64,000 bases of DNA from an uncultured Candidatus Micrarchaeota archaeon (lineage in GTDB: Archaea; Micrarchaeota; Micrarchaeia; Anstonellales; Bilamarchaeaceae): assembly GCA_963723105.1 (NCBI GenBank), contig CAVRPK010000002.1, positions 121,098-185,097 on the forward strand, in the 5' to 3' direction. Shown in pieces: positions 19,444 through 39,479 of this stretch; within the stretch, counting starts at the first letter, position 1; each line of letters opens with the position of its first letter. The translations under genes and the position numbers were made by a program. A model generated the notes under the pieces. That model did not search any database, was not told the DNA's origin, and saw nothing but the letters and a program-made list of their open reading frames with translations.

Positions 19444-22400
19444 TTACCACATTACTCTAGCAGTACCCATGATTCCCCATCCCATAGGAGCATTCATAAT
19501 TCCAGTAACGCTTTCTTCTTGTCCTGCCCATGGACTGAGTTGTTCTGGGGATGTAACTGAACCTGGTGTTGTTGGCCAGCTTCCTGAGTATCCCATAATA
19601 TGGCCAGATATTATTGTTCCTGGGTCACTACTTCCTGGATCTTGCCTTTCATAGGTTACTCCAAGGCCTCCTCTTAGAACTGGATATGTTTCGTATTCTG
19701 CTGCTGGATGGAGAGATCCCTCTGGTTCTGGACTTGTGGATGCATCTTCAAGCATTCTCCTTCTCTCAGCTCCTCCTTCAAAGAAGAAGTGGAGACTAAG
19801 AGATTCACCAGTAGTGATGTTTGTTCTTGCCCATGTGAGTCCAACTCCTGCAGTGGTTCTTTGAAGTTCATTTAGGTCTGAACACTCCCCTCCGCTTAGC
19901 TGTGAACAAACCTGTGCCATTTCATCAGCGTTTTCAAAGACATCATCACTTGCAAATACTACTTGTCTCGTTGTCTGATTGAAGAATACATATGAGTATA
20001 GCTGTTCGTTTACTCTCTCAGTATTAAGCATTGTAATGCGATGACTTAATCCAACCTGCCAATTGGTCCATTGCTCGTTTCCATATGTTCTCTGGCCATA
20101 TAATACACCTGCAAGAAGATCTTGTCTGTGGTCTTGTAATAATTGTGCAAGTGCGCCTATTGTCCAATTGCCACCTGGGCTATATTGTTCATGACCTGCT
20201 TCGGTAAGAGGTATTGTTAGTCCTCCCATGAGCCTAAATGCTGTCAGTGTTCGAAGTCTTCGATCTCCTGAGAATGTAAATTCGTAATCCTCGCCTTCTG
20301 TTGAAATGTCAAGTCTGCTAACTCCATGTCCAATGTAGTTGCCAGATTCTTCCCATTCATCAAGGTCTTCCTGAGTTCCAATCATGATAGAACCTCTTGA
20401 ATTTGGACCTGTTCCAATTCGGGTTACCATGACGAAATATCTATTTCTTCTCTCTGGACTATCCCCTTCCATTTCTGCATTGAGATGGCTTCCATAGATA
20501 ACATCATATCGTTCTGCCTGCTGTCTTCCATGCGAGTTCAATGCTGCTGCAAGGCAAGGTCTTATGTTCTGTTCAATTATTCTTCGAACTTCAGCTCCAG
20601 TTAATTCTGCTCTTGCTGGTGGCTGCCTGATATTGACTTCAGATAAACTTGCTTCAACGCTTCCGCTTGTTCCTGCTCTTCGTACAAACTCAGTTTCTAC
20701 TTCTTCAGGAGTTTTCAATACCCATCCAAGAGAATGAACATTGTTTTCAATGAGCTGTACTAGTTCTTCTCCATATTCAGTAGCAATGCGTTCTCGGTTT
20801 GGATTAACTCTTCTAAGTTCTCTATATATGTCTACAATTGCTTCTGCAGTTTCACTGCTTCTTCTTGAAGAAATTAACATTGCAAGTGGATCTTCATCCT
20901 CATCAATCATTCTTGCAAGCTCAGTTCTCACTTGTGCAACAGGTCGAATCATCCACTCAAGACCATTTCCTCTCTGTGCATGAACAATATCTGCAAATCC
21001 TTGGCCATAAATTCTTTCCATTCTGTCATGGCTGTATGCAACACTTCCAAGCCTGATGTATGCATCGCGTGCAGCTGCCGAATGATCTGAGGTTCTATGA
21101 AGCGTAACATTGCGCTCATACCTTGACAGTTCAATTGCAGGCCAATCAAGAACTCCAAAGCCCATATATGCATCAATATACGGATTTGCCCTCTCACTTC
21201 TTTGTACTTGGAACCCTCCTGTTGAATCAGGGTCTTCTACAATCATTACTGATGAATGGGTGTATCCATGACCAAGGAGGTCTATGTATGCACGAGCCGG
21301 TCTTCCAAATATAAACATTCCATAAAGATTTGCATATGCTGTTTCATCATCTGTCCATTGTCCTGTTGCAATTGTGTAAATTCTTAATCGCTCTCCATCA
21401 TATCCATAACCAAGTGCAAATCTCCAAATATCACTTGTAAAGTCATTTTGAAGGGAACTTGATAATCCTTGTAGAATCTGTTCTTCGTTTGTTGGATTTT
21501 GCTGAATGTCTAACATTGCCTGGTCTATCCGGTCATACAATCTACTAAATCCAGGAACTCTTTGCACTCCAGCAAGAATTCCATGCCTCCTGGCCCAGTA
21601 TGCCATAAGTAAACTTGCATAATGTTCGTTTGGTGCTTCTGGCTGATCCTCTGCTTCTCCTTGCCAGCCCTCCATTCTTCCATACATGTATGTTCCAGCT
21701 ACTAACCATCCAGTGTCACGAGCCTCGTCTTCTCCCCAACCATACATATTGACAAGAACATTTCTCATTGTTGCAAAAACTTCATCTGATTCCTGATCCA
21801 CTGCTCTGAATTCGCGCAGCAAATCTACTTCAGTATATCCACCAGTAAGTCCATGCCCATATGATCTGTGCGCGCCTGTCTGCCTTTCATATCTCCATCT
21901 GGCACCAGCTGTTAGTGGATATCCACCAACTGCACGGAATTCCATTGATGCTTGTCTTGGAGCAATTGCCATTCTTCTCCACATGAATTCTCCAGAACCT
22001 TCTGCCCAATGTGATCCATCTATACTTGTAGAATCCTCAGGATTCATTTCAAGAATCTGTGCTCCTCTGTAAAATCCTGCATAAATATCCCGAGCTCGTC
22101 CATCTTCAAGAATGTGGGTTACTGCTTGTCCCATGGCCTCCTCAGCATGTTGCGGAGTCATAGTTCCCATATCTCGAACAACTTGTCCAAGTGCAAGAGT
22201 AGTTGAAGTATCCCCTCTAGTAGTTGGAATTGTAAAGCCTACTGCAGCACCATCAAATCCAGCAAGAGCAGATTCTCCGTTAATCTCATTCCAAACTCCC
22301 TGCTCGCGCGCAAGCCTTTCAATTTCATCTGCGCCGGTTTGAGCTTGCTGCTCTGCATTTAGTCCAAGATGTCTTTCTATTAATCTAGTTCTCTCTGCAC

Positions 22401-25400
22401 CTGAAAGTGCTGGTGCAACTGCACTATTTCTTCCTGCAAATCTAAGGCCTGCCAGAATATTTCTGGTATCTGTACTTCCATATAAATAATTGAGTATCTG
22501 TGCGTGCGTATCAATTCCATATGCAAGATCATATGCATTTCCAGTTGATCCATCAATGTAGAAAAGTCTTGTTCTAAGCTGGCTTCTCTCATCCTGCAAT
22601 ACTGCTCCAACTGTGCCAGGAGCAGCTCCTTCTGGAACTGGCGCGCGAAGCTCTGGTGCATGTTCTCCGCCGACTACAACAAGCATATCTCCTCCAGAGT
22701 CTCTTGCAATTCTGGAATATGTTTCAAGAAGTCCACTGTATCTTTCTCTACTTTGCACCTCTCCAGTTTCTTCAGTTGTTTGGTCCGCACCTTCATAATT
22801 GAATCGTATATTCCCTCTTTGCAATCCTACTCCTTCTCCAAATGCAACTGGAATAACTCCAGCAACCCCCACTGGAAGTCCTGCTGCCTGAGCTTCAATA
22901 TCAACATCAGTTTCAGCTGTTTCACTATCTCCAGCCTCTTCTGATTCTACTGCTGTTCTTCTATGAGTTACAACCCCCCGGCCTCGAACTCCCCCAGTAA
23001 TTGCCCTTCCTTGCCCAACTCCTCCAACTGCTGCTACATCTGTTGAAGTTGTATCTGAGTCTGTTGCAGTTGGGATAGTTCCCTCATGACCGTAATAGCC
23101 ACCAACTTCCCAATCATGGCGAAGCCAATAGCTACTATAGTCTATTGGCATCTCACCAAATAATCTTGTTATCTCTCTGATAATTGTGGAAGCTCCAAGG
23201 GCTCCGATTCTATATCTTTGCGGAATTCCGTGTATCATATGTCTTCCAAGTGTTGGGTGCAGCATGTCATACATTCTTGAGAAATATTCAGTTGCACCAG
23301 AATCAAGTCCAAATCTGCTTGGAGGCTCAATCAAACTTCTTGGCATTGTTGGAGATGGGATTAAATTCCAAGGTTGTGCTGCTTGTCCATAAAGTTGTGG
23401 AAGTGGTTCCATTCCTTCCATTTGCAGGAAGTGGGGTCTGTACCTATATCCTTGAGGATTCCATGGACTTTCCATAAGTTGCCTTTCAGGAACTCTTCTA
23501 AGTTCATCCTCCATTCTATTGTGATCATATGTTGCAGTAACTTCTGGAAGTCTCTGTCCAATTCTGGCAAACACTTCAAGGAAGTATTCCCTGTTCCTAT
23601 GTGTGCTGTAAGAAAGAGTAGCTCCTGCTGTTGAGTACATCCTGCTGAATACTGTATTGAACGTTTCAATTCCGGCAACAAGTGTTCTTTCATCCTGTGC
23701 AACACTGATTATTGCTGGAAGAACCTGCAGGATGAATGGACCAACTAAGTATGGGTCTCTTTGACTAATCAATAACAGCGAATTCATTGTTGCCCGCGCG
23801 GCACTTGTTCCGAATTCTGAGCCCAGGCTTCCAATTCTGCCAAGTCCAACTCCAAGGTAAAGCGCATCAATAATCGAGAGTTGGTTTCTAAGGTTTGTTG
23901 CTTCTGCTTCAGTAAATCCTCGTGCATCTTCTGCATCAGAAGCTATTCCACTATCCCGTCTTCCCTGGAGGTATGTGCTCTCAAGCTGGCCATAGAATGT
24001 TCTTCCTGCAGTAATCAAATCTCTTCCTGATTCACTGCTAAGGAAACGTGCAAGGTCTTCTGGAGTTTGAAGTCCGCTTTCTGCAGTTCCTGGCGGAAGA
24101 CTGATACTGTATCTTCTTGCAAGTGTTTGCAGTTGTGAATTTAGAAGGTCCAGATTAATGAAATTTCTAAATAGATAATCATTTGATCCAAACTGGTCTC
24201 TGTAATGGTTAATTGCAAGAGTTAAGTTCGCACCAAGATCATCAGTTGCATTTGCAAAAACAAGAACTCCTTGAAGTCTTGAATAAACTCCTGGAAGAAC
24301 TTCAGCAACATGCCTGAAGTTTTGCATAAATTCTCCACGTGCAACCCCATCTCCTGCTTCAAAGCTTCTGTTTAATTGTTCTAATCGCTCTGCATCAACT
24401 TGTCTTAGGTGCTCAACATCACTAGTACTTAGGTTTTCAAGGAATCTAAGCTGTGCTCGGTTTCTCTCAACCATTTGCACAAATGCTGCTCCATATATTT
24501 GTCTAAGTCCTGCAATTCTTGCAGTTCTCTCTTCTGATGCCGGAGTGTTCAATGCTCCATAAACAGAACCAAGTGCATATAGCAGTTGTTCATCCTGATG
24601 TCTGTATGCTCTGTGAAGAGCAGTAACCACTCTGGTATATGCTTGTGGATATGCGCGGTATAATGATTGTCTTACTGATGCTGGAAGTGCAGTTACTTCT
24701 TCAAGTCCTGCTCTTGCCTCTGCAAGCGGAGCTAAATGCTCTCTTTGTCTTTCCACTGCACTGACAAATCTATCACCATAAAGCTCTACCATCCTCTCTC
24801 TTGTCTCAGTTCCATCAGGACGAGCTATTGCACGATAAACTCTGATCGTTATATTCGCAAACAATACGTTTTGGCCCATTCTCAAATTTTGTTCGCTAGT
24901 GCCAGTTAAATTTTCAAGGAATCCAAGAACTGGTCTGTGATCATTTATCAATCTGACAAATTCAGTTCCATGTCTTCTTTGCACATCCGCTACATTCCCG
25001 CTTCCTCTTGAAATCGCATTGTATGCCGTTCCAAGGTCTCTGCTAAATCCACGGTCTCCCATGCTGGAAATAAATGCTCTAAGCTCTGGATCAGCTCTGC
25101 CAAGTACAGCAAAAATAATATCTCCGATTACTGCTTGCTTGTCTGGATTTGTAACTCCACTGTACCAGGTCATTCCACTTCGAAGCGATCCAACATCGCT
25201 TGAGCTTGCAATTGTTTCTGAAAATCCATCAATACTGCCTGCAGTTCTTGAAAGGTCTCCTCCAGTTTCTGCAAGGTGAATCATTGAAAATGCAAGTTCA
25301 ACTGATCTTCTAAGTTCAGTTCCACTAATCATGCTTTCTTGCAGTGCTCTTTGTTCTGTTAGGAGGGTTTGTATTTCTGCTTGATCAGCACCACCTGCTG

Positions 25401-28065
25401 CAAGCCTTATCCTTCTACTTTCTTCTTCCCACCTATTGATTCTTTCTTCAAGCATTGGACGTGCAGGTGCAAGAATGCTGTGTTCCAGTTGTCTTCTCAT
25501 GCTTTCTAGATCACGTTCAATTGTACTGGAATTTGCTGTGATCTCTCCCCTACTTCCTTCAAGAGCTTCTCCTGATATTCCTCTTGTTCTTGATGCTTCT
25601 CTGCTTGCAACTGGAGTTAAGAAAAATCTTCCAAGCGAATCAATTCCATCCATTCTAGCAAGTCCGCCTCTAGTTAAAGCCTCTCTTCCACTGGCATATG
25701 AAAGAATGAATTGTACTGGAGTAAATGGAAATAGTAATTCTTTTGCTGATCTGGTTATTTGGTCTTGCCCCCGCAAAAGTCGTTGTTCAATACTTGTAAC
25801 ATTTCCGCCTAGCCACTCTAATTGCGCTCTGTTTTGAGTAACAAAATCCACTGCAGCCTGTCCATACTGAGTAACTAATTCTGCTGTAGTTGGACTTGCC
25901 TGTCCATGAGCTGCATAAATTGCATGAAGTGCTCTTGCAAGACCTCCAATTGAATATCCAATTGCTGGTGCTCCTCCTTGAGTAGCCAGTGTATCAGCTT
26001 CACGAACAAACACATCAGATGTTCTTGTTGTCATCTCATGTTCTATTTGTCCTACTGGTCTAACTGCCCAGTGCAATGTATCAAGATTTTGTGAAACATA
26101 ATTCACAAATTCACTACCATATCTTGTAGCAAGCAATTCTCTTGTTTGTCTGAATAATGTAATTTGTGCGTATGCTGCAGATAATGTAGTTCCACCGTCT
26201 TGTGGGAAAAGCGCCTTTAGCTGAACTGCAACCTCATCTGATTCTTCTCCCCTTCCAGGTGCTGATCTTCGATCAAGTTCTGCCTGTACTTCTTCTGGAG
26301 TTCCTGCAAGCCAGGATAGTTCAGCATAATGTTCAGTGATAATTGAGCCTGCTGGAACAGCGCCTATTCCAAGTCGCTCTGTTGCAAGCTGTCCATAAAC
26401 ATCTGCAAGCGCAGCACCTCTGTCAAGTCTTTCTCCGGCTTGCACTCTAATTGTCATTGAAGAAATGCGTCTTGCATGTATGTCTTCTTCGCGTGCTCTA
26501 TCTGTTAATACTCTGTTTAGATCAGTGGCAGTTCTTATCATCCAGGTTGGTCTTCTTGCTGAAACAAGCGCTATTAATTCCGGACTATATGCTGCTCTGA
26601 GTCTGTCCATATCTGGAGGGCTTCTGAGAAGTTCTATGTAAATATCTCTAACTGCGATTGATCTTACGTTTCTTCTGAAATTCATTTCAATACTTGAGAT
26701 TGTAGTATTACCCTGAATTTGCGCTCTATACAATCTTACAAACTCATTGAAGAAAGTATCATTTCTCTCAAGTGGTACTCTGGTGTATGTTCTTGATCCA
26801 ATATCTCCGGTACCCGCAACAAAATTGCCACTATAAATTCTGATAAATTCATCTCTGGCAGTTGTACTTCCAGTTGCAAGCACCTGCTCCATCAAAGTTG
26901 CGCATCTTCTAGCTAGTCCAAGCGAAATAATATCAACAAATCTGTCAACTGTTTCATTTCCATGTGCCTGTCTAAGCGATTGAAGTCTTGAGACATTGCC
27001 TGTGCTTGCAGCTTCATACATTTGCGAAACTGCAGTTGCAAATGCTTCTGGATCTACCTGGTTATTATGGTGAGTATAATATGATCTGTAAACCATGGAA
27101 ATTGGTGATGGCTGTCTATGGCCTTCCTCTCCAACTTGGTCTCTTGTTATGCGCTCCAAAAATAATCTTTGGAATCCTGTCCAGAATTCTCCGGATGTAC
27201 TGTGCGCTCCAAATATTCTTCTAAATTCATCTCTTTGTGCAGTGTCTCCAGTGAGCATAAAGTTTCGAAGAGAATCAACACATCTTGTTGCTTGCTGGTT
27301 TGGTAATTCTCCAGATAAAAGATTAGTTAAATTTTCTCCATGTCGCTCTCTTATCTCAGTAAGCCCTGTTGCTTCGAGTACATGTCTTGCAGCATCTTCT
27401 GCAGTAGCATCTGTATGAGCTCTTCTATATGCTCTGAATCTTCCAATTTCACTTTCTGCTGGAGCCTCTGTTTCTCCTGCTCTCTCTACTCTTTGAACCA
27501 GTGCATCTATCAGTGCCCATGTAGTTGCATTGGCAGCAAGCCTGGTTCTAATCTCACGAACTTTGGTAATAAAATCTTCCATGATAGAAGGTTCCATTCG
27601 AATTCCGATAACGTGATCAAGATCAGCTTCATATGCTTCAAGAATTGGACGAACTTGATCATCTGCTCTCATTGTTGTCATTCTGCTATGAAGCTCATCC
27701 ATAAATTCTCTGTTTTCAGTTACCGGCTGCTCCTGGAATTGACTTGTGATAAGAGCTCTGTATCTTGTATAATCAGCTTCATTTCCTGTTAAAATATAAT
27801 TTTGATATGCGGTTGCAGCATCCCTAGCTCTTTGCTGAAGGCCTGCTACTTCTTCCTGTTCCGCGTGGGTAGCTCCCCTACGTCGAGTTGCCGGTTGTGC
27901 CATAACAGAATTTACTCCGAGATGATTTATATTATTACCGCCTAAGAAAACTGAGACTGCAACTAAAGGCGCAAGCAAATATTTTCCAAAAATAGAACTT
28001 TTTCTGCGGTGCGGTCGCTCTCCATGATCCCCCTTTTGATCATGTTTTATTTTGGATCCAACCAT
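19444..28065 (-). CDS. giant (2873 aa) Lys/Cys-depleted, Arg/Ala/Gly-rich repeat protein with N-terminal signal/anchor; ORFan
   Basis: Uninterrupted 8.6-kb ORF with an ATG start, preceded by GGAGAA 6 nt upstream. The N-terminus has a hydrophobic segment (IFGKYLLAPLVAVSVFLGG...VMAQPATRRR). At least seven diverged tandem modules share the motif YG..FV..V..N...L.WL....P..Q. An Asp/Thr/Gly-rich low-complexity linker lies near residue 1550. There are only a handful of lysines in 2873 residues. Confidence 0.7.
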   Translation of the reverse strand: MVGSKIKHDQKGDHGERPHRRKSSIFGKYLLAPLVAVSVFLGGNNINHLGVNSVMAQPATRRRGATHAEQEEVAGLQQRARDAATAYQNYILTGNEADYTRYRALITSQFQEQPVTENREFMDELHSRMTTMRADDQVRPILEAYEADLDHVIGIRMEPSIMEDFITKVREIRTRLAANATTWALIDALVQRVERAGETEAPAESEIGRFRAYRRAHTDATAEDAARHVLEATGLTEIRERHGENLTNLLSGELPNQQATRCVDSLRNFMLTGDTAQRDEFRRIFGAHSTSGEFWTGFQRLFLERITRDQVGEEGHRQPSPISMVYRSYYTHHNNQVDPEAFATAVSQMYEAASTGNVSRLQSLRQAHGNETVDRFVDIISLGLARRCATLMEQVLATGSTTARDEFIRIYSGNFVAGTGDIGSRTYTRVPLERNDTFFNEFVRLYRAQIQGNTTISSIEMNFRRNVRSIAVRDIYIELLRSPPDMDRLRAAYSPELIALVSARRPTWMIRTATDLNRVLTDRAREEDIHARRISSMTIRVQAGERLDRGAALADVYGQLATERLGIGAVPAGSIITEHYAELSWLAGTPEEVQAELDRRSAPGRGEESDEVAVQLKALFPQDGGTTLSAAYAQITLFRQTRELLATRYGSEFVNYVSQNLDTLHWAVRPVGQIEHEMTTRTSDVFVREADTLATQGGAPAIGYSIGGLARALHAIYAAHGQASPTTAELVTQYGQAAVDFVTQNRAQLEWLGGNVTSIEQRLLRGQDQITRSAKELLFPFTPVQFILSYASGREALTRGGLARMDGIDSLGRFFLTPVASREASRTRGISGEALEGSRGEITANSSTIERDLESMRRQLEHSILAPARPMLEERINRWEEESRRIRLAAGGADQAEIQTLLTEQRALQESMISGTELRRSVELAFSMIHLAETGGDLSRTAGSIDGFSETIASSSDVGSLRSGMTWYSGVTNPDKQAVIGDIIFAVLGRADPELRAFISSMGDRGFSRDLGTAYNAISRGSGNVADVQRRHGTEFVRLINDHRPVLGFLENLTGTSEQNLRMGQNVLFANITIRVYRAIARPDGTETRERMVELYGDRFVSAVERQREHLAPLAEARAGLEEVTALPASVRQSLYRAYPQAYTRVVTALHRAYRHQDEQLLYALGSVYGALNTPASEERTARIAGLRQIYGAAFVQMVERNRAQLRFLENLSTSDVEHLRQVDAERLEQLNRSFEAGDGVARGEFMQNFRHVAEVLPGVYSRLQGVLVFANATDDLGANLTLAINHYRDQFGSNDYLFRNFINLDLLNSQLQTLARRYSISLPPGTAESGLQTPEDLARFLSSESGRDLITAGRTFYGQLESTYLQGRRDSGIASDAEDARGFTEAEATNLRNQLSIIDALYLGVGLGRIGSLGSEFGTSAARATMNSLLLISQRDPYLVGPFILQVLPAIISVAQDERTLVAGIETFNTVFSRMYSTAGATLSYSTHRNREYFLEVFARIGQRLPEVTATYDHNRMEDELRRVPERQLMESPWNPQGYRYRPHFLQMEGMEPLPQLYGQAAQPWNLIPSPTMPRSLIEPPSRFGLDSGATEYFSRMYDMLHPTLGRHMIHGIPQRYRIGALGASTIIREITRLFGEMPIDYSSYWLRHDWEVGGYYGHEGTIPTATDSDTTSTDVAAVGGVGQGRAITGGVRGRGVVTHRRTAVESEEAGDSETAETDVDIEAQAAGLPVGVAGVIPVAFGEGVGLQRGNIRFNYEGADQTTEETGEVQSRERYSGLLETYSRIARDSGGDMLVVVGGEHAPELRAPVPEGAAPGTVGAVLQDERSQLRTRLFYIDGSTGNAYDLAYGIDTHAQILNYLYGSTDTRNILAGLRFAGRNSAVAPALSGAERTRLIERHLGLNAEQQAQTGADEIERLAREQGVWNEINGESALAGFDGAAVGFTIPTTRGDTSTTLALGQVVRDMGTMTPQHAEEAMGQAVTHILEDGRARDIYAGFYRGAQILEMNPEDSTSIDGSHWAEGSGEFMWRRMAIAPRQASMEFRAVGGYPLTAGARWRYERQTGAHRSYGHGLTGGYTEVDLLREFRAVDQESDEVFATMRNVLVNMYGWGEDEARDTGWLVAGTYMYGRMEGWQGEAEDQPEAPNEHYASLLMAYWARRHGILAGVQRVPGFSRLYDRIDQAMLDIQQNPTNEEQILQGLSSSLQNDFTSDIWRFALGYGYDGERLRIYTIATGQWTDDETAYANLYGMFIFGRPARAYIDLLGHGYTHSSVMIVEDPDSTGGFQVQRSERANPYIDAYMGFGVLDWPAIELSRYERNVTLHRTSDHSAAARDAYIRLGSVAYSHDRMERIYGQGFADIVHAQRGNGLEWMIRPVAQVRTELARMIDEDEDPLAMLISSRRSSETAEAIVDIYRELRRVNPNRERIATEYGEELVQLIENNVHSLGWVLKTPEEVETEFVRRAGTSGSVEASLSEVNIRQPPARAELTGAEVRRIIEQNIRPCLAAALNSHGRQQAERYDVIYGSHLNAEMEGDSPERRNRYFVMVTRIGTGPNSRGSIMIGTQEDLDEWEESGNYIGHGVSRLDISTEGEDYEFTFSGDRRLRTLTAFRLMGGLTIPLTEAGHEQYSPGGNWTIGALAQLLQDHRQDLLAGVLYGQRTYGNEQWTNWQVGLSHRITMLNTERVNEQLYSYVFFNQTTRQVVFASDDVFENADEMAQVCSQLSGGECSDLNELQRTTAGVGLTWARTNITTGESLSLHFFFEGGAERRRMLEDASTSPEPEGSLHPAAEYETYPVLRGGLGVTYERQDPGSSDPGTIISGHIMGYSGSWPTTPGSVTSPEQLSPWAGQEESVTGIMNAPMGWGIMGTARVMW

Positions 28066-28178
28066 TTCCTGATTCTCCTATTCGGTTTGCACTTATAGAT
28101 TATCTTTGCCAATATTATTACAATGCTAATTCCAGTTGCCTATACTGATTACAACACATCTAATATTTAACATAGCGT

Positions 28179-28194
28179 ATCCCCCTAAGGGGAT
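28179..28194. promoter_or_regulatory. GC-rich palindrome ATCCCC-CTAA-GGGGAT in the 238-nt spacer between the 806-aa gene and the 2873-aa gene
   Basis: Seen directly. It is the only GC-rich dyad in an otherwise AT-rich spacer that must carry the signals separating or reinitiating the two giant-gene transcripts. Confidence 0.2.
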
Positions 28195-30724: not shown

Positions 30725-33700
30725 TATTGTCGCCTCGATCTATGTGCTCTTGCATATCCATGGATATGATTTCTATATGCAGTTCTAGCTCCTCTTGCGC
30801 TAAATGAAACTGTCATATCAGCTCCTTCTCCTTCAACTGTTATTCCAAGAGATCTCCTCAGTCTAGCTGATCTATCAGATGTTCCAGTTATTATTCTATA
30901 TATATCCGCCTTTATCTCTGTTCGAGCATGTGCTCTATTTGCTTGTTGCGCGCTTTCAATTCCTTCCTGGTCTTCTCCAAATGCTGCTCTCATCACAACA
31001 CCATCACCGCGCCTTCTTGTGCCTTCACCCTCAACATCATTAAACAACGCGTCGATTCTAGCATCAATAAATTCAGCTATTTGAACTCCACCGCGCTCTT
31101 CACTTTGATAAAAGCTTTGGGCCTCTGGACTAAGTCCAACTGTTGGAGCTCTTTCTACTTCTGCAGGCTCTTCGGTTTCTTCATCCTGTTGCTCTGCAGG
31201 CTGCCTTGTTTCAAAGCCTGGCCTTCTTGGATATCTTGGCCTTTCTTCTTCTTCAAGCACTTCTGCGCGCGTTCTACCTGCATCTGTTCTTCTTGGAGTT
31301 GAACTTCTAGCATCTCCTCTGCTTCTTCGTTCTGCTCCACCTGCTCGTTCTCTCATTTCAACTGGGGTTGATCCACTCCACCAGCCTCTTGATCTATAAT
31401 AACCTGATTGCCTATCGAGATACTCGTAGATTGCCTGAGGGGCCATGTCTTGAGTTTGTGCATTTGCTTGAATGTGCCTTAGAATTTCATGTAAATTTTC
31501 GATCTGATGGCCATTATCTGCCATCCACTTCATTACTCCATTTGTAGCTCGTCCTCCGCGCATTTCAGTATGAGTTGTTGCAAATGCAATTGCTTCTGCA
31601 TATTCACTGCCTCGAAGCGCTCCATCCATCTGAGCAAATATCCTAGGTGCAACTTGTCCGCTTTCTCTTGCAGTTGCAAGTGCTGTTCCAGGGTTTTCTG
31701 CAATCAAGGTTGCAAGTGCATTTAAGTCTCCGTAAATCTCTTCACCAAATTCTCCTTCAGTGAGGTTGAATCTGTTGAATGCACGAAGAGCAGCAGTGTT
31801 GCTTTCATATGTTCGAAGTAGTGACTCTAGTGTTGTTCTTACACTCGGATCCGTACAAGCTCTTCGATCAAGATTTCCTAGGAATGAATTCTGTGCAATT
31901 GCCGTTCCAAGATAGAGGTTTTCATCTGTTAAAAGTCCTCGAAGAACTTGCGCTCTTCTTGCAGGAGTAAGAGTGACAAGAGAACTAATGCTTGTTCTGT
32001 TTGCTTCAGAAGAAAGTTCACTAATTACATTATCTAAATATACTACTGGTATATGTCCCTGCTGGACTCCCATCCAGACAAATGCAAATGCGCTCGGGTT
32101 ATTGTGAAGGAATTCAATCATTCTTGCATGTTCTGCATTTGGTCTTCCTGCTTGGATTTCAGCAGGCGTAATTACTCCAGCATCAGCAAGCAGCTGAGTT
32201 GCAGCTCCTTCTGCAAATGACATCACAATTCCTCGCTCTCTCCATTGTGACATTCTAAGATCTGCCATGTCTGTAATGTCAAGATGCTCTTTGCGTTCAC
32301 TTACCAAAGTCGCATCAACCATCTCAAGACTTATTCCCCAGGGCTGAATTATTGCAAGCAATTCACGCTCTGCTTCAGTACGATCTGCACTTCCTTCAGC
32401 AGCAGTTCTTCTGGTATCAAGCAACTCATTGATATCTTCAAGTCGTCCTGTCATCTCTCTGCCATCAGTGAGGAACTCATTCATTCTTCTTGGATTCAGG
32501 TAGTGTCCGCTTCCTTCAAGAAGTGCTGTCAACTGTTCCTGGTTCCCAGGTCTTCTGTCAGTTGATTGTGGAAGGGTATTTGGCAGATGGAAATAGAACT
32601 GCCTTCCTTCTTCAGTGTCTGTTATCCAGAGTGCATTTTCTTCTGAAATGGAAATTCCAAAATCTCTTTGTGCTATTGCAATACCTTGTCTGATTTCATC
32701 TTCATTGGAAAGCATGTCATGAAGCGGACTATAAATAAATCTCCAGCCAAGATATCCTGCTCCTGCCCATGTTGCAATCTGTGGCACCATCCTCACTGAA
32801 TTTGATGGCCTGAGCATTGCATAAGGCACTGATCCTCCAGCTGCTCTTGCTGATTGGATCGCTCTGTAATACTGCATTCCCCCCCAGTGAGTCAATGGAA
32901 AATGTGCTCTTGTTCCAGTTGCCCTATGTCCAAATACCCATCTCCATGCTCCTGTTGCATACTCTCCTACTGTTCCGCGCACTGTATGCGAAGCCTCTCT
33001 TGCAAGTATTCCTGCCTGCTCTGAAATTCCAGGTATAAGCTGTTCCATTCTTGGATTTGATATTCCTATTGCATGGAAGTTTGCACGCATCTCAGCAGTT
33101 CTTACAGATCTGAGCATTCTGGCCAGTGGGGTTCCCATATCAAAGACTACTTCGATATTTCCTCCTTCACCAATTGCCTGCTCGAATATTCTTCTCTGCT
33201 GCGGTCCATAATTCTCCCGGACTGCTCTTCCAACTCTTTCACTTCGAAGGACAGTTGCGATTGCATCATCAAGATTTCCTCCCTGTAGCATTTGCTCTGA
33301 AATCCCTCTTCGAACTGCCTGCGCAACAGGATCTCCTTCTGCAGAAATTCTTCCAATCATGCTTCTTGTTGAATTTCTAAGTGTAAGTCCTTCTGCAATT
33401 ATCACATCTCCGGAAATTGCTCCTCTGCCTTCAAGTTGCAATAATAATGCAGCACGATCTCCGGCACTAAATTCTGTTCCAAGAAGTCTTTCAGTTTGTG
33501 CAAGCGGTCGCAATGCTGCTCTTTGGTCTCTTGTTTGCTGAACCAATTGCTGATTCTGTTCAAATGCTGTTTCATGGGCTGTGTTTGCTCTCTCGTGTGC
33601 TGCTTCAAGTCTAGCTAGTCTTCTTCCTGTTACTCCTCTTGTTCTTGCTGCTTCAAGGTTTACTCTTGCTGTTTCAAGAGCTTGTCCAGTCCTCTGGGCT

Positions 33701-36700
33701 ACTGCTTCAGAAGCTGCAAGGCTACTTTCAATCTCTGCAAGCCTTGCTGCTGCACCACGCTCTGTTGCTTCTACTATTAATGTCACTTCTTCAGTTGTAA
33801 ATGGTCTTGCATCAGTAAGTTCCATATATGCATCTGCAGTTCTACTGCTTCCAGCAGCCTGTCTTATTGATCCTTGTGTTCTTGCAAGTGCTCTTGCAAG
33901 TGCAGGATCACTTCTTGCTGCTGCTTCAAGATGGGGTCTGAGGTTTGGAGACGAATAAAGCTTTCTCAAAACTCCAAGATATCCTTCCCTTGTTCCTCTT
34001 CCTGCGCTTGTTGCCATTCTGTCTATTCTGACAAACAAGTCAATTGATCGCTGCACGCTGTTTCTTGCCATATTTGCAACTTCAGTTGCTTCTGCCCTTG
34101 CCTGCAGTGCTGTACGTTGTGCTGCCTGGACCTCAGCTGCAGGTGCTCCAGCTTCTGTCAGTGTCCTGAAATTTGCTTCTGCTCTTTCTGCTACTCTATT
34201 CGCTCTTCCAATTACAACATTGACTTCTTCCGGAGTCATGGTAATGTCTGAGATTATGTCACTCATTCTTGTCTGAGCATCTTCTATGATCCTGTCTGCA
34301 TTTGGAGGTTCTGCTGGATTTCTTCTTGCTGCTCTTGTTGCCCTCCAATCACGGAGCCTTCCAACTACTCTTCTATATAATAGTGTTCCTCTGCCAATCT
34401 GTCTTGGCTGCTCTCCTGGCCGAAGTATCCCTGATTCTAATGCTTGTGCATTGAGCTCTGCCTGCTGGCTATCTACTGCGCCTGGCTCTCTTACTCCAGT
34501 TGGTTCTCTTGGTGTGCCTCCAGTTCGTCTTTCACCACCACTTACTCTTCTGCTTGCTCCACCTGCCGGTGCTCCAGTTCCAGGAGGAGTTCCTGATGGG
34601 GGAGTACTTGCACTTGCTCGAATTGGTGGCATGGTTGTTTCGCCAGTTATTCTTGGCTGTCCTGGAACTTCAATAACATATTCTGTTCCAGTACCTGTTC
34701 TAATAATCTCAAATTCCATGGTTGCTTCTGCAGCATGTGCTTCAGTAATCACTTCATCCGGAACAGCTCTTCTAAGAGGTCCTGGTGCTTCAGGAGTTCC
34801 GAATTCCCTTAGTATTGCACGAGTTGAGAATGGTGTGTCTATTCCAGTATCAAGCGCATGCCTTACTGCTCTGTTTTGAAGAAGCACATCTATTCTGGCA
34901 GCTGCTTGTGGATGTTCTGCTCTTATTGCTTCAAGCCTTGCACGGGCTGCGATCATACTGCTTGTTCTTGCTTCTGCTGGAGTTGCTTCAAACCCTGCAA
35001 GCTCTCCAAGGAATGATCTGAATCGCTCTGGATTTGAAATAAATGATGCAAGATCGCGAAGTGGTCTCATTCCTCCTCCAGGTCCTCCTGGCGGAGTTGG
35101 GAATTCCAAACCTCTAATTCCGCGCACAAGTGCTGCTTCTGCAAGTTGATTTAATTCCCCTCCGCGAAGTGCTGTTCTTATTGCGCCCTGTCTCATAAGC
35201 TGAGAAATTTGGATTCTAAGTCTTGATGAAAAACCTCCGAAAATTTCAAGTGCAATCGGATTCTGTGCGCGAAGTAGTCTCATGAACCTGAACATTGTAC
35301 TTGGGTTTCCAAGTTCGCGTGCTCCTAATACTTCTGGCGGAGCTTCTCCAAATTCTGCTGCAAATTCTCTTGCATAAATTCTTGCTTGGCCTCTTGCTGA
35401 TCTTATAGCAATTGCCCTTCTAGCAGCAGATCCTCCCATTAGTGCCCATGGGAAAAGTCCAAGTCCGATCATAAGAGCTGCATTTGTAGTATCTCCTCTT
35501 TGATATGCCTGATATCCATGATAGAATGCATATCCTGAGAAGAACGTTGCAATTCCAAGATTCGCAACATTCAATCCAGTTGCAACTCTTGAGAGTCTTA
35601 TTGCATGGGTAGTTGCACCAGCTGCCCGGGCTGCAAGTGCAGCACGACCTACTCTTGCAGCAGCACCCATCATCCCAAGGCTTACTACTACAAGTCCTGC
35701 CATTGCCCAGCTTTCTGCTGATGCATGGCCATGAACTCTGTATTCAGTTACAATTTGTTCAGCTGCCATTCCAAGGAATATTGCTCCTGAAACATATGGA
35801 CCAACTACTGGAATAAATGCAGCTGCAAGTCCAGCGCCAATTAATGCCCACTGAAGTGCCTGCTGATTTCTTTGAACTGTTTGCTGCATTACTGTAAGTA
35901 TTGATTGTGCTCTCTCAAGTGCAGCTGTTGCCACTTCGCCCTGACTTTCGTAAGCATGACGAAGCTGGCTTAGCACTTCACTTTGCGCTCTTGCATAATC
36001 AGTAGTTATCTGAGCTGCTCCGCTTTGAGGAATTGCAAATATTGAAGTTTCAAGAAGAGTTGCAATTTGTCCTCTTCTATTGAGCTCATCATCGCTAAGG
36101 TTTCCAAATAGGATTTGATGGAATGCACTCAAATGCGCAGATCTATAAAATTCAAAACCCTGCATTCTTCGCTGTTCATCATAAGCAGTTCTAACTGCTT
36201 GTCTTCCACCAAGAGCTTGTGCGAGTCCTGGCGCTCTAGCAAACAAAATTTGTGTTGCCATCGGAGAGTTTTCTGCCAGGTATCCCATCAAAGCTTCTTG
36301 TCTGCTTGAGATTGCCTGCATGTAAGCTTGCTCTGCATCTTCAAAATTATTTATCAGCATTGCTCTTCTTGCTGCAATTAATTGATCTTGGCACTGGACT
36401 AATCTTGCTCCAGTTCGCGCAGCTACTTCCCCACTTGTAGTTAGCACAACTTGCCTGTATTGTTCGTTAAGAGCAAGCTGTCCATTTAGAACTGCAAATG
36501 CACGTGCAATTCTCGCTTCCCTGCTAACTTCTCCAAGGAATTCTCCAAGTTGCTGTTCTGGGAATGCTCCGTTTAATCCCTGCAATTGTTCAAAGAAAGC
36601 AAGTGCCTCACCAGCTAGATGCGGCATCACATATGTTGAAGTTGCCTGTAGCGAACTGATATAATGAATGAGGGCAGTTCTTCTTGCTTCAAGTCTTGTT

Positions 36701-37806
36701 ATTGCAGCTCGCCTTGGTGCAAGATCTCTTGCTGATGGTGCAGCTACTCCTTCTGGAACATTATCATAGAGTCCGCCAATTTCTACAAGCATTCTATTTA
36801 CTTCAAGAAGCCTGTCTCTTGCGCTCTGAAGATTTTGCTGTCTTAGTGTTCCTGCTGTAACATGCCCTAGTCTTGTATTGAATCTGTCAACTACGCGATT
36901 GAACTCTGCCATATTTCCTGTTGTAGCAGCAACTCTAAGTTGTCTTGTGAGTTGCCTTAGGGTTCTCTGTCCGCGAAGCCTTGGATCAGTTCCAGCAAAG
37001 TCTCTTTCGTATCGTCGAACATCAGCAAGAGCAACATATCCTTCATATCTTCCCCCTGTTCTTGTTCCAAGAGGCAATTGCCCTCTGGTATCTGTCTGTC
37101 CGGCAACCCAATCCTGCCTTCCCATGATTCTCTCTTCAAGCTGATGCGCTCTTGTTAGAAGAATTTCGGTATTTGCAATTCTTGCTGAGCCTGAATCAAA
37201 CCTTTCAGCTGCAGCAGTATGTTGTTCCAGTGTTTGTGCATTGACTTCCATTTCAATTGCTTCAAGCATCTCCTGTCTTCCTTGCACATAACCTGGAGTT
37301 CTCTGTCCAAAGCTGGTTGAAAATAATCCATATCTCCATCCTTCTCTTTGTCTGCTTTCTGCAGTTCCATAATAGTCTCTGGCATATTGAAGCAGAATGT
37401 GCGCTCCTTGGAAATCTCCTTGTCTTGCCCTATCTCTTGCTACTGCAAGTGCATCTTGTATCCCATCTTGCCCAATTTCTCTTCCTGCAATTGATCTTTC
37501 AATTCTTCCTGCTTCGCGTCTTACATATGCATTTTGTGCAGCTGCATAACTTTCTACAAATCTCTGTTCAATAGGCTCTCCAGCAAGTGTGAATCTTCCT
37601 CCTCTTGCATATTCAATTATCCGTTCCATTCCCTGAAGGAAGGCTGCATCGGATTCTGCTACTGATGTTATTCTTCCGCTTCTTCGAACTCCAAGTCTTT
37701 CAACTGCTTCGCTATACATTGCAATAAATGTCAAAACTCTTCTTGCTCTTGTAAGGTTTCCCTGTTCAATAAGATCATCAATATGACGCAAGCGTTTCAG
37801 TTGCAA
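30724..37806 (-). CDS. giant (2360 aa) Lys/Cys-depleted protein with internal hydrophobic four-helix core (approx 35409-35859); ORFan
   Basis: Uninterrupted 7.1-kb ORF. The start as called is TTG (the first ATG is 29 codons downstream). Residues approx 650-800 form four hydrophobic helices (LIGAGLAAAFIPVVGPYVSGAIFLGMAA ... AMAGLVVVSLGMMGAAA ... LNVANLGIATFFSGYAFY ... ALMIGLGLFPWALMGG) embedded in an otherwise highly charged Arg/Ala/Glu-rich polypeptide. A Pro/Thr/Gly-rich low-complexity tract lies near residue 1020. Confidence 0.7.
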   Translation of the reverse strand: MQLKRLRHIDDLIEQGNLTRARRVLTFIAMYSEAVERLGVRRSGRITSVAESDAAFLQGMERIIEYARGGRFTLAGEPIEQRFVESYAAAQNAYVRREAGRIERSIAGREIGQDGIQDALAVARDRARQGDFQGAHILLQYARDYYGTAESRQREGWRYGLFSTSFGQRTPGYVQGRQEMLEAIEMEVNAQTLEQHTAAAERFDSGSARIANTEILLTRAHQLEERIMGRQDWVAGQTDTRGQLPLGTRTGGRYEGYVALADVRRYERDFAGTDPRLRGQRTLRQLTRQLRVAATTGNMAEFNRVVDRFNTRLGHVTAGTLRQQNLQSARDRLLEVNRMLVEIGGLYDNVPEGVAAPSARDLAPRRAAITRLEARRTALIHYISSLQATSTYVMPHLAGEALAFFEQLQGLNGAFPEQQLGEFLGEVSREARIARAFAVLNGQLALNEQYRQVVLTTSGEVAARTGARLVQCQDQLIAARRAMLINNFEDAEQAYMQAISSRQEALMGYLAENSPMATQILFARAPGLAQALGGRQAVRTAYDEQRRMQGFEFYRSAHLSAFHQILFGNLSDDELNRRGQIATLLETSIFAIPQSGAAQITTDYARAQSEVLSQLRHAYESQGEVATAALERAQSILTVMQQTVQRNQQALQWALIGAGLAAAFIPVVGPYVSGAIFLGMAAEQIVTEYRVHGHASAESWAMAGLVVVSLGMMGAAARVGRAALAARAAGATTHAIRLSRVATGLNVANLGIATFFSGYAFYHGYQAYQRGDTTNAALMIGLGLFPWALMGGSAARRAIAIRSARGQARIYAREFAAEFGEAPPEVLGARELGNPSTMFRFMRLLRAQNPIALEIFGGFSSRLRIQISQLMRQGAIRTALRGGELNQLAEAALVRGIRGLEFPTPPGGPGGGMRPLRDLASFISNPERFRSFLGELAGFEATPAEARTSSMIAARARLEAIRAEHPQAAARIDVLLQNRAVRHALDTGIDTPFSTRAILREFGTPEAPGPLRRAVPDEVITEAHAAEATMEFEIIRTGTGTEYVIEVPGQPRITGETTMPPIRASASTPPSGTPPGTGAPAGGASRRVSGGERRTGGTPREPTGVREPGAVDSQQAELNAQALESGILRPGEQPRQIGRGTLLYRRVVGRLRDWRATRAARRNPAEPPNADRIIEDAQTRMSDIISDITMTPEEVNVVIGRANRVAERAEANFRTLTEAGAPAAEVQAAQRTALQARAEATEVANMARNSVQRSIDLFVRIDRMATSAGRGTREGYLGVLRKLYSSPNLRPHLEAAARSDPALARALARTQGSIRQAAGSSRTADAYMELTDARPFTTEEVTLIVEATERGAAARLAEIESSLAASEAVAQRTGQALETARVNLEAARTRGVTGRRLARLEAAHERANTAHETAFEQNQQLVQQTRDQRAALRPLAQTERLLGTEFSAGDRAALLLQLEGRGAISGDVIIAEGLTLRNSTRSMIGRISAEGDPVAQAVRRGISEQMLQGGNLDDAIATVLRSERVGRAVRENYGPQQRRIFEQAIGEGGNIEVVFDMGTPLARMLRSVRTAEMRANFHAIGISNPRMEQLIPGISEQAGILAREASHTVRGTVGEYATGAWRWVFGHRATGTRAHFPLTHWGGMQYYRAIQSARAAGGSVPYAMLRPSNSVRMVPQIATWAGAGYLGWRFIYSPLHDMLSNEDEIRQGIAIAQRDFGISISEENALWITDTEEGRQFYFHLPNTLPQSTDRRPGNQEQLTALLEGSGHYLNPRRMNEFLTDGREMTGRLEDINELLDTRRTAAEGSADRTEAERELLAIIQPWGISLEMVDATLVSERKEHLDITDMADLRMSQWRERGIVMSFAEGAATQLLADAGVITPAEIQAGRPNAEHARMIEFLHNNPSAFAFVWMGVQQGHIPVVYLDNVISELSSEANRTSISSLVTLTPARRAQVLRGLLTDENLYLGTAIAQNSFLGNLDRRACTDPSVRTTLESLLRTYESNTAALRAFNRFNLTEGEFGEEIYGDLNALATLIAENPGTALATARESGQVAPRIFAQMDGALRGSEYAEAIAFATTHTEMRGGRATNGVMKWMADNGHQIENLHEILRHIQANAQTQDMAPQAIYEYLDRQSGYYRSRGWWSGSTPVEMRERAGGAERRSRGDARSSTPRRTDAGRTRAEVLEEEERPRYPRRPGFETRQPAEQQDEETEEPAEVERAPTVGLSPEAQSFYQSEERGGVQIAEFIDARIDALFNDVEGEGTRRRGDGVVMRAAFGEDQEGIESAQQANRAHARTEIKADIYRIITGTSDRSARLRRSLGITVEGEGADMTVSFSARGARTAYRNHIHGYARAHRSRRQ

Positions 37807-39013
37807 CTGTTTTCTGTGAAAATCTTCCCCAGGTTCCTATTCTTGTTCTAAGTTCACTTACTGTTGAAGAATATTCATGGCGAAGTGTTCCGTCATGGAA
37901 CTGTTCACTGCTGTCGGTTCCGGTAAGCTCTGCATCAAGTGCTGCTTCCATCTGCTCTGAGCCTGCAAATGCTCTCCATCTTCTCTGCTCACCAATTGTT
38001 GTGTATGCAGTTACCATATCAAACAATCGTTCTGCTCCAGCAACATCCCCACTCAAAAGCCTAACTCTCGCAGCCTGAATTGCTGATCGAATTCTTTCTC
38101 TTTTTGCTGCTGGGCCTCTATTTCTATATCTTGTTTCAAGCGAATCCATATCTGCTCTTAGCGTTGCGATATTGAGCGTGTCCTGGAATCTGTGCGCCAT
38201 TGCTGGCGTGAATGAAATCCTTCCATCAATGATTCTGTTTATCTCTGCATAATTATCGAGATATCGTCTTCCTTGTCCATTTGCAATCTGCTCAAGAAGA
38301 CCCATCATCATTGAAAGTCTTGCAATCTGAACCTCACTAGAATCAAGTGCATCAAGTGCTCTTTGAGCATACCATGCCGGGCTATGTTCTGCCGGAGCTC
38401 TTCTTGAAGTTCCCCTAAGCGCAACTGCCCTTTCCCTCAAATCTTCTACTTGTTCCGTTTCAGTTCTTGGCTGCACTGTTCCGCTTAATATATGGTATCT
38501 CTGAATCAGTCCTCGAGCCTGCTGAAGATCAACTGTCCTATCTCTCCCAAGTCTTGCTAAAAAAGTATCCATCTCCTGCTGAAGGCTTTGGATGGCAGCT
38601 GCCCGTATTCTATCTTGTGCAACATCTGCAGAAATTAATTCAAGTTGCTGCCTGTAGTGTGTGAGTGTTGCTATTGTTTCAGTTCTAATTGCAGATTGTG
38701 CTGTCCTTAAATCCTCAGTAAATTGTCCAATAAACTGCCTATCTGCTATTGCATCTTCTTCTGAATATATCACTCCCTCTCTGGCATCTTCGCCTCTCTC
38801 AATAATAAATCTGTATCCTCTATCTCTGATAATTGATGCCTGGGATCCTTCTATCCTGCTAAGCTGAGGAAGTCTTGCAAGCAATCTCCCAACTGCTAAA
38901 ATATTAATTCCTCTTTGGTTGTTACGTGTTCCAATATCAATAAGCGCTGATTCAAGTCCGTTGCAATACTTCATCTGGAATGTCCTCACTTTCAATTCCA
39001 GAAATTTGTACAT
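37778..39013 (-). CDS. hypothetical 411-aa protein of the giant-gene cluster (Lys-depleted, Arg-rich, predicted helical)
   Basis: ATG start. It overlaps the upstream 175-aa gene by about 60 nt and the downstream giant gene by up to 29 nt. After the first 15 residues there are no further Lys. Confidence 0.5.
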   Translation of the reverse strand: MYKFLELKVRTFQMKYCNGLESALIDIGTRNNQRGINILAVGRLLARLPQLSRIEGSQASIIRDRGYRFIIERGEDAREGVIYSEEDAIADRQFIGQFTEDLRTAQSAIRTETIATLTHYRQQLELISADVAQDRIRAAAIQSLQQEMDTFLARLGRDRTVDLQQARGLIQRYHILSGTVQPRTETEQVEDLRERAVALRGTSRRAPAEHSPAWYAQRALDALDSSEVQIARLSMMMGLLEQIANGQGRRYLDNYAEINRIIDGRISFTPAMAHRFQDTLNIATLRADMDSLETRYRNRGPAAKRERIRSAIQAARVRLLSGDVAGAERLFDMVTAYTTIGEQRRWRAFAGSEQMEAALDAELTGTDSSEQFHDGTLRHEYSSTVSELRTRIGTWGRFSQKTVATETLASY

Positions 39014-39479
39014 TTGTTGGAGTTCCTGCGAGAAGCAATCTCATTCCAATATCATAAACTTCTCCGATTCTTACAATCTTATCTCTTGCCTCTGCAAGTG
39101 ACCTAACTGCATTTCCAAGTCTTCCTTCATTTGCTTCGGTTACTGATCTTTCAATTACTGCTTCTATCATTTCAAGTTCGTTTGTGTATCTTTGCCCAAG
39201 AATCGGAACAGATGTAAGATGCATTCTTGTAACTGTTCTTCGAAGCATATCTGCATCCCTTTGAACTCCTTCTGAGGTCCTTGCTCCAGGACTTACTCTT
39301 ATTTCTCCTGCGTATTCGAGCAGTTCACTGATCTGTGCTTGCACTCTTGTAAGTCCTTCTCTAAGTTCCTGTTCTTGTCCTGGACTTACTACTGTTCTGA
39401 TTGGTACAATAGAAATTGGAAGGTGACTTTCTTCTCTTGTTTCCGGTCTTCTTCTTTGACGTTCTGCCATAATCTTCAC
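38952..39479 (-). CDS. hypothetical 175-aa protein of the giant-gene cluster (Arg-rich)
   Basis: Start GTG at 39479 or ATG at 39470; abuts the stop of the 106-aa gene. Composition matches the cluster. Confidence 0.45.
   Translation of the reverse strand: MKIMAERQRRRPETREESHLPISIVPIRTVVSPGQEQELREGLTRVQAQISELLEYAGEIRVSPGARTSEGVQRDADMLRRTVTRMHLTSVPILGQRYTNELEMIEAVIERSVTEANEGRLGNAVRSLAEARDKIVRIGEVYDIGMRLLLAGTPTNVQISGIESEDIPDEVLQRT

Follow-up and report, generated by a model that had tools for sequence, protein, structure and literature searches.

A conserved lysine-depleted gene module for giant, predicted exported proteins in Micrarchaeota

Lysine-poor proteins described so far and the locus in the window

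Protein stretches without lysine (Lys) have been described as lysine deserts, defined as Lys-free regions of at least 150 amino acids (aa) or at least 50% of the sequence (PMC10665810), and they are known in components of the ubiquitin-proteasome system and in the proteomes of pupylating Actinobacteria (PMC10169902, PMC10665810). A chains of AB toxins that translocate from the endoplasmic reticulum, such as ricin A and cholera toxin A1, use arginine (Arg) over Lys, which has been explained as an escape from ubiquitination after entry into the target cell (PMC4030972, PMC6471375). Among genome-reduced symbionts, very large genes with a presumed role in host contact are described for Nanohaloarchaeota (PMC10266531). 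Here we describe three adjacent genes, termed A, M and B, in a 64-kb piece of the chromosome of a Micrarchaeota (DPANN) archaeon (contig CAVRPK010000002.1; the whole analyzed stretch is called the window hereafter), whose large products are almost devoid of Lys. Our literature search found neither this module nor its Lys purge described before.

The window contains the housekeeping genes for FtsY, prefoldin, eIF6, L31e, S19e, fibrillarin, Trm56, ThyX and Cdc48. Its closest public species representative is the metagenome-assembled genome (MAG) 'Modern_marine.mb.41', with 97% identity across the C-terminal third of gene A. The three genes, and the two places at which the reading frame of B is disturbed, are the following:

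19444..28065, minus strand: gene A, a predicted secreted giant of 2,873 aa with 10 Lys (5 of them in the signal peptide), 278 Arg and 5 cysteines (Cys)
28304..30724, minus strand: gene M, 806 aa with 1 Lys, 100 Arg and no Cys, and a Pro/Arg-rich linker at aa ~95-130
30724..39479, minus strand: gene B, ~2,917 aa, appearing in the window as three open reading frames (ORFs) of 175, 411 and 2360 aa
38963..38963, minus strand: first extra base (+1) in B relative to the intact orthologue L004, outside any homopolymer
37786..37806, minus strand: interval that holds the second extra base (+1) in B, from the DNA alignment

The minus-strand ORF listing at 19444-39479 gives products of 2873, 806, 2360, 411 and 175 aa, and an earlier, sequence-only reading of this DNA had counted them as five consecutive proteins. 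There are three genes, as the ORFs at 38952-39479, 37778-39013 and 30724-37806 are parts of a single gene. Homologues P0010 and P0011 (83-86% identical) and P0013 (33%) encode B as one protein of 2,825-2,924 aa, a tblastn comparison located two frame jumps in the window copy, and alignment of the DNA with L004 revealed one extra base at each junction. Deletion of base 38963 and of the base at about 37786 restores a B of 2,917 aa with 8 Lys, 345 Arg and 2 Cys. The deposited annotation likewise splits B (P0009, 2,355 aa). Programmed frameshifting was considered, but neither site is slippery or homopolymeric and gene A is likewise broken, into four ORFs, in MAG L009, so that an assembly error or recent pseudogenization is the more likely origin of the breaks. 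The frame errors do not create the unusual composition, a possibility that the sequence-only reading had itself named as a refuter, but the 411-aa ORF owes its K3, K8, K15 and C17 to an out-of-frame extension, which makes them artefacts.

As listed, the five ORFs contain 23 Lys, 727 Arg and 8 Cys in 6,625 aa, and the corrected genes A, M and B contain 19, 723 and 7, respectively, in 6,596 aa. From the frequencies in the flanks (8.4% Lys, 4.6% Arg and 1.0% Cys in the 40 other ORFs of the window), 552 Lys and 67 Cys would be expected (log10 P = -214 and -20, respectively). Arg is enriched 2.4-fold, and the fraction K/(K+R) is 0.01-0.035 in the module compared to a flank mean of 0.66 (sd 0.15). 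The depletion of Lys in Lys-rich surroundings is therefore confirmed. The statement that the remaining Lys lie mostly within the first 15 residues is overstated, as this applies to just 8 of the 23, partly through the ORF-calling artefact.

The longest Lys-free runs span 1,474 aa in A (51% of the protein), 1,282 aa in B (44%) and 765 aa in M (95%), so that all three products reach the length by which lysine deserts are defined. Like these, they contain long, evolutionarily conserved Lys-free stretches of the kind read as avoidance of Lys-directed tagging. Unlike the known cases, the stretches make up whole exported proteins of 800-2,900 aa in an archaeon with an 8% Lys proteome at 38% GC, they run for 765-1,474 aa instead of 150, the basic charge is kept by exchange of Lys for Arg, and the three genes switch together between states. 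With the toxin A chains the module shares that basic residues are Arg and Lys is nearly absent. The toxin chains, each a single catalytic polypeptide of roughly 200-270 aa, act in the eukaryotic cytosol, whereas the module belongs to an archaeal symbiont and comprises structural, membrane and enzyme proteins that add up to ~6,600 residues. The Nanohaloarchaeota giants resemble it in being huge genes with few or no known domains in symbiotic archaea; they share no detected domains with it, and the retrieved papers report no compositional purge. The module belongs to the lysine-desert or Arg-for-Lys kind of bias, and what is new is that it is archaeal, exported, module-wide, switchable and tied to uncharacterized giant proteins, with a membrane-type beta-barrel predicted among them. 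It follows that lysine deserts are not limited to intracellular proteostasis components or to GC-rich bacteria.

The raised local GC and the two frame disruptions in B could be taken to mean that there is no biology here, and that the cause is mutational bias, misread frames or horizontal acquisition from a donor rich in GC. However, the rise in GC is confined to codon positions 1 and 2 (0.58 and 0.50 in the module, 0.52 and 0.36 in the flanks), whereas the module lies below the flanks in GC at the third position (0.24 against 0.29) and at four-fold sites (0.16 against 0.21), and the synonymous preferences are alike. These codon statistics rule out horizontal transfer and GC bias, and they bear out the proposal that the elevated GC is compositional only and needs no foreign origin. 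A viral or mobile origin was ruled out by the conserved chromosomal place next to Trm56 and FtsY and by the lack of any relative of the module in the viral contig collection. In addition, Lys codons occur without restraint among the first ~55 codons of A, and the proteins are conserved, with one Pfam domain and a confident fold. An artefact or transfer has hardly any probability left and is already refuted by the codon statistics, the survey of 21 loci described below and the Lys of the signal peptide. AGA and AGG, which a single transition turns into the Lys codons AAA and AAG, account for 80% of the 727 Arg codons. The codon data thus indicate mutation pressure towards Lys, so its absence must be maintained by selection. 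Avoidance of AAA/AAG at the mRNA level was also ruled out, by the Lys codons in the signal peptide of A, as was nutritional Lys economy, by the Lys-rich housekeeping proteins.

Lysine before and after export, and in other proteins of the same cell

To describe where Lys is kept, the following features are needed:

27898..28065, minus strand: predicted signal peptide of A, aa 1-56 (5 Lys in 56 aa), with a Lys/Arg-rich n-region, a hydrophobic core and the motif NINNLG.N.(A/V)MA|QP
25138..25140, minus strand: codon of A Lys976 (NPDKQAV)
30727..31182, minus strand: C-terminal domain of B (148 aa, 1 Lys), homologous to the C-terminus of U at ~29% identity
39917..43678, minus strand: gene U, 1,253 aa, Lys-normal (8.0% Lys), an internal control whose C-terminal ~136 aa are paralogous to the C-terminal domain of B
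53286-54221, plus strand: secreted protein with a C-terminal anchor, 14 Cys (4.5%), poly-Pro linkers and 3.2% Lys, with a weak DUF7107 match
61402..62535, minus strand: unlinked putative lipoprotein of 377 aa with 8.8% Arg and a lipobox-like LGAC (Cys45)

By inspection and hydropathy, A begins with a basic segment (aa 1-28) and a hydrophobic one (aa 23-44) followed by the conserved cleavage motif, and it is predicted to be secreted through Sec with a cleavable signal peptide. In six Lys-free homologues in which the motif was matched, Lys makes up 4.6% of the residues before the cleavage site and 0.25% of the mature chain. This agrees with the suggestion of the sequence-only reading that the proteins work in a different compartment from the rest of the proteome, and they appear to do so.

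The signal peptide bears on the idea that giant, slowly exported chains have to escape the quality control of the symbiont's own cytoplasm, evading tagging by small archaeal modifier proteins (SAMP), the proteasome and Cdc48. M and B, for which no signal peptide was recognized, must spend time in the cytoplasm, and the window has a gene for an AAA ATPase of the Cdc48 type. Yet it is the cytoplasm-facing n-region of A's signal peptide that has 4.6% Lys, and the neighbouring U, with 1,253 aa, is Lys-normal; we therefore consider cytoplasmic quality control a very doubtful cause.

Comparison with other secreted proteins of the window, which the sequence-only reading had cited as not Lys-depleted, supported that claim. 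Lys accounts for 7.6% and Arg for 1.2% of the protein encoded at 7578-9071, which carries a signal peptide and a C-terminal anchor as well as CARDB-like domains; the one at 53286-54221 has 3.2% Lys. As the former is Lys-rich and the latter Cys-rich, the extracellular milieu as such forbids neither residue. A pattern resembling that of the module was found in the putative lipoprotein at 61402-62535, for which there was no match in Pfam, PHROG or PADLOC: its Lys (K17, 19, 20, 24, 27 and 48) are all at or before the anchor, five of them in the cytoplasmic tail, and the 329-aa ectodomain (aa 49-377) has none. The pattern is kept in homologues of at least 77% identity and absent from the more distant P0020 (7% Lys). 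The Lys in the signal peptide and the Lys-rich composition of other surface proteins suggest that the harm arises after export, at a place or in company specific to the module.

A few Lys escape the purge. Lys976 of A is invariant in an alignment of 8 sequences and present in 15 of 16 full-length homologues (the exception is P0031), in Lys-free and Lys-normal homologues alike. In B, K2856 is invariant and K459, K1839 and K2396 are mostly conserved. The C-terminal domain shared by B and U contains 10 Lys in U, a protein of cytoplasmic type. The copy in B contains a single Lys, K2856 (codon 30910-30912), which aligns with a Lys of U.

Conservation of the purge and changes of the lysine state

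None of eight close homologues of A, at 40-86% identity, exceeds 0.35% Lys. Across them, the Arg of the window protein faces Arg in 58% of positions and Lys in 1.0%, and the Arg of B faces Lys in 0.4% of aligned positions. Arg and Lys are ordinarily among the commonest exchanges in substitution matrices. The exchange is thus not neutral drift, as the sequence-only reading had maintained: even among 40-50%-identical homologues Arg stands opposite Lys in just 0.4-1.0% of positions, and the sum of Lys and Arg stays at 10-12% in Lys-free and Lys-normal homologues alike. The purge is conserved across 30-97% identity and across genome GC of 0.39-0.65, next to genes that are Lys-rich. Lys stands at 0.1-0.4% in A, M and both B paralogues of the 60%-GC relative L006, and at 5-17% in the adjacent ribosomal and housekeeping genes.

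That Arg is enriched while total basic charge is conserved could also reflect a positive requirement for Arg, through guanidinium binding of host lipid phosphates or acidic glycans or through membrane penetration; a preprint reports stronger membrane binding and bending for Arg-rich than for Lys-rich peptides (bioRxiv 10.1101/2025.04.14.648709). Such a requirement does not explain the near-total loss of non-essential Lys at ~300 variable surface positions per protein. Moreover, where Lys-normal homologues carry Lys, the Lys-free ones carry Arg in just 29% of cases, and otherwise Glu, Gln, Ala, Thr or Ser. We regard a demand for Arg as very unlikely to be the cause. As hundreds of variable positions have been cleared of non-essential Lys in the face of mutation pressure, Lys seems to be individually harmful and not merely inferior to Arg.

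An exhaustive HMMER search with the C-terminal 974 aa of A yielded 58 cluster representatives, whose Lys content is bimodal, either ~0.1-0.8% (one at 1.35%) or 3-10.7%. All long members of the family are poor in Cys (<0.35%), Lys-free and Lys-normal alike. The scarcity of Cys therefore characterizes the family as a whole and is distinct from the Lys purge; contrary to what had been proposed, the two do not form one signal.

A pattern-based scan, covering each GTDB species with one genome, yielded 21 loci, nearly all in MAGs of Micrarchaeota/Micrarchaeia, with a few titled 'archaeon' and one 'Candidatus ainarchaeum sp.'. The module is restricted to Micrarchaeota and has a conserved chromosomal position, the locus lying between FtsY and Trm56/PGM also in distant relatives. 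A is Lys-free in 17 of the 21 loci, as are its neighbours M and B (0-0.7%) in every case in which they were captured, while other ORFs there have 3.3-10.4% Lys. In the remaining four, A is Lys-normal (4.4-7.3%) and, where captured, so are M (4.6-10.7%) and B (7.2-8.3%). The bias that the sequence-only reading had proposed to look for in homologues is thus present in most species representatives, among homologues down to ~30% identity, and absent from some lineages. The three genes are under one selective regime, which acts on Lys itself, on the exported part of A, in most lineages and independently of genome composition.

In a tree of full-length A (2,682 columns, with K and R recoded as one state), the Lys-normal P0026 (4.6% Lys; its locus is too short to include the module neighbours) is sister to the Lys-free P0023 (0.2%) with a bootstrap of 100, and none of 100 replicates recovers the Lys-free sequences as monophyletic. 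A wider but short alignment (209 columns, with poorly resolved clades) required at least 3 state changes in 200 of 200 replicates. In these reconstructions the Lys state of the module has changed several times.

The distribution bears on whether the chemistry of the habitat could be responsible, be it high pH, reactive aldehydes, glycation or Lys-specific proteases of the community, all of which Arg would resist. This would fit the confinement of the purge to the exported mature part, the rarity of Cys, the other strong nucleophile, and the likewise Lys-free ectodomain of the lipoprotein. But the anchored surface protein at 7578-9071 is rich in Lys, and Cys poverty is equal in the Lys-normal homologues. 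The genomes that carry the module, Lys-free lineages included, derive from habitats as different as marine mats, a deep mine, soils and groundwater, and Lys-free and Lys-normal members occur in one naming series, possibly of one study (MAG003 vs MAG016 and MAG195). We find habitat chemistry unlikely. Given the flips between sister lineages and the very different habitats of the Lys-free ones, the agent is more likely biotic, and specific to a partner, than abiotic.

Predicted architecture and a possible role at a partner cell

Neither single-sequence nor profile searches gave a match for A, B or U in Pfam, NCBIfam, PHROGs, PADLOC or PDB sequences, and M matched in its SGNH domain only; weak matches were disregarded (LegC2/C7 at 18 bits, against a cutoff of 350, and one PHROG of unknown function). 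The parts of the three proteins that could be recognized are the following:

21100..22251, minus strand: A aa 1939-2322, first block of ~20 long beta-strands of a predicted barrel
20539..21084, minus strand: A aa 2328-2509, helical insert made of 'YGxxFV...NR..L.WL' modules
19447..20328, minus strand: A aa 2580-2873, second block of ~12 long beta-strands, with an amphipathic last strand and a terminal Trp
29072..29563, minus strand: predicted SGNH/GDSL hydrolase domain of M, aa 388-551 (Pfam PF13472, 40.3 bits against a cutoff of 32.9)
35422..35862, minus strand: central hydrophobic cluster of B, aa ~1206-1352, with 3-4 Gly/Ala-rich membrane segments, kept in P0010, P0013 and the L006 paralogue

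The N-terminal ~1,900 aa of A are helical, with a recurring module of ~80 aa that is not in Pfam. Its signature, (R/E)xYGxxFVxxVxxNRxxLxWL, occurs in at least 8 copies within 20539-27000 (minus strand), for example at aa 411, 493, 649, 734, 1096, 1191, 2353 and 2431. The last 974 aa were modelled by AlphaFold2 from an alignment of 50 sequences, with a predicted local distance difference test score (pLDDT) of 88 and a predicted template modelling score of 0.72; an alignment of 7 sequences had given a pLDDT of 49. The model (19447-22251) shows ~20 long antiparallel strands, a helical insert and ~12 further strands, ~32 in all. The strands have the expected dyad pattern, with a face that is not strongly hydrophobic, and the last one resembles a beta-signal: A ends in ...GWGIMGTARVMW, and most complete homologues end in W or F. 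The best PDB matches in Foldseek were SprA (the translocon of the type IX secretion system), SusC, LptD and TonB-dependent transporters, with E-values down to 9e-7 and TM-scores of just 0.1-0.2. The C-terminal third of A is therefore predicted to be a beta-barrel of the bacterial outer-membrane type, a statement on fold and not on family membership. From these proteins, and from the PelB/PgaA/BcsC exporters and Omp85/FhaC, A differs in having no sequence similarity and such low global TM-scores, and from bacterial barrels in being fused to a 1,900-aa helical region in an archaeon with no known outer membrane or beta-barrel assembly (BAM) machinery. A barrel of this type is unexpected in an archaeon, and the 64-kb window contains no genes for an outer membrane or a BamA-type insertase. 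Imaging of another DPANN archaeon has shown a large, unidentified complex with the shape of a barrel in its envelope (PMC11329633), to which we claim no link.

M is predicted to be an SGNH esterase. Besides the family match and weak matches to SGNH proteins in PDB, its catalytic blocks I (GASLTAG), III (VIVNDG) and V (GDHLHPN) are intact, with GDS, GxN and DxLH in orthologues according to the block alignment. Unlike in typical SGNH hydrolases, the domain is embedded in 806 aa with N- and C-terminal domains of no known kind, a Pro/Arg-rich linker and a single Lys. SGNH hydrolases form an acyl-enzyme intermediate, and a Lys-directed reaction of the module, be it an acyl or other transfer through an associated enzyme or a covalent cross-link at a few conserved Lys, could have favoured removal of all others for self-protection or site specificity, as in a natural 'single-lysine' design. 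The strict conservation of K976 in A and of K459, K1839, K2396 and K2856 in B amid the purge would fit this, as would the SGNH domain itself. Nevertheless, the conserved Lys and an intact M occur in Lys-normal lineages as well, so that the chemistry would have to be lineage-specific, and no transglutaminase, sortase or ligase was found in the locus. It seems an improbable explanation.

Our preferred, still tentative, reading is that A, M and B form an exported cell-contact apparatus acting at or inside a partner cell, where Lys is a liability; we give it somewhat less than an even chance. The genes would constitute one Micrarchaeota-specific, chromosomally inherited module for a cell-surface or cell-contact apparatus, with the exported parts of all three products under strong purifying selection against Lys in most lineages and with Arg or Gln substituted so that basic charge is kept. 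At or inside the partner (host) cell, exposed epsilon-amino groups would be open to Lys-directed attack, possibly ubiquitin-like (SAMP/Urm1-type) tagging that leads to proteasomal degradation, or Lys-specific cleavage or modification. The Lys retained would be just the few that are functionally essential, and lineages whose partners lack that attack would relax to a normal Lys content. Similar reasoning has been put forward for the toxin A chains (PMC4030972, PMC6471375) and for lysine deserts (PMC10665810). Among the causes named by the sequence-only reading, which included Lys-specific proteases, glycation and acylation, ubiquitin-type tagging would be the one to prefer, and this by elimination only.

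Several points weigh against an action at a partner cell. The barrel is a prediction, and we know of no machinery in archaea that would insert such barrels. No recognizable export signal or signal peptide was found in M and B, nor any Lys-directed enzyme in the window. No host is known for the lineages that carry the module, and nothing in the data shows delivery to a partner cell. To our knowledge, it is not established that archaea defend themselves by SAMP/Urm1 tagging of foreign proteins. Lastly, the module was not detected in cultured acidophilic Micrarchaeota, though the pattern-based scan could have missed it there.

The cell-contact reading can be carried further, to a contact-dependent translocon whose barrel, contributed by A, would be inserted in the partner membrane or in the envelope of the symbiont, with B and M acting with it or passing through it, and with the Lys purge, gained and lost repeatedly and in a coordinated way, as the footprint of an arms race against a Lys-directed host defence. 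We think this version quite unlikely. If true, the translocon would give archaea a first membrane beta-barrel machine of their own origin, and the arms race would be the first evidence of anti-symbiont immunity in archaea by ubiquitin-like tagging and the proteasome. DPANN archaea depend on contact with host cells, and the molecules of that contact are almost unknown; the three genes take up ~20 kb of a very small genome and bear two independent signatures, the predicted barrel and the Lys purge. As the purge is binary and lineage-specific, comparison of Lys-free and Lys-normal genomes and of their co-occurring hosts could offer a handle on what attacks Lys.

Other features of the window and of related loci include the following:

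39480..39800, minus strand: small conserved Lys-rich protein (106 aa, 14% Lys), immediately upstream of B, with an orthologue at the equivalent place in L006
L010 3-3575, L022 1-3957, L011 13993-19098 (minus strand) and L018 12833-17191 (minus strand): large Lys-poor ORFs by the module

The 106-aa protein had no match in Pfam, NCBIfam, PHROGs, PADLOC or PDB sequences; in L006 it lies upstream of B together with U, as in the window. The large ORFs, in other Micrarchaeota, have 0.2-1.8% Lys, adjoin the module without a BLAST match to A, B, M or U, and may be additional or replacement components. Downstream of A, at 18978-19409 (plus strand), is a gene for a Lys-rich protein of 143 aa (14% Lys) with no Pfam match, which is directly adjacent to A on the opposite strand in most of the loci checked (L002, L007, L008, L009, L017, L021 and L026), both Lys-free and Lys-normal. 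At 51513-52556 (minus strand), a 347-aa protein with an N-terminal anchor and no Pfam match is partly depleted of Lys (3.2% Lys, 7.8% Arg) and may be an intermediate case of the bias of the module. A 534-aa protein at 11968-13572 (minus strand) contains two ThyX (Thy1) stretches, a duplicated or fused flavin-dependent thymidylate synthase that is kept in the relative L002. The signal recognition particle RNA at 54309-54565 (minus strand) was matched by the Rfam model 'Bacteria_large_SRP' (66.8 bits) and not by an archaeal model, despite the archaeal organism.

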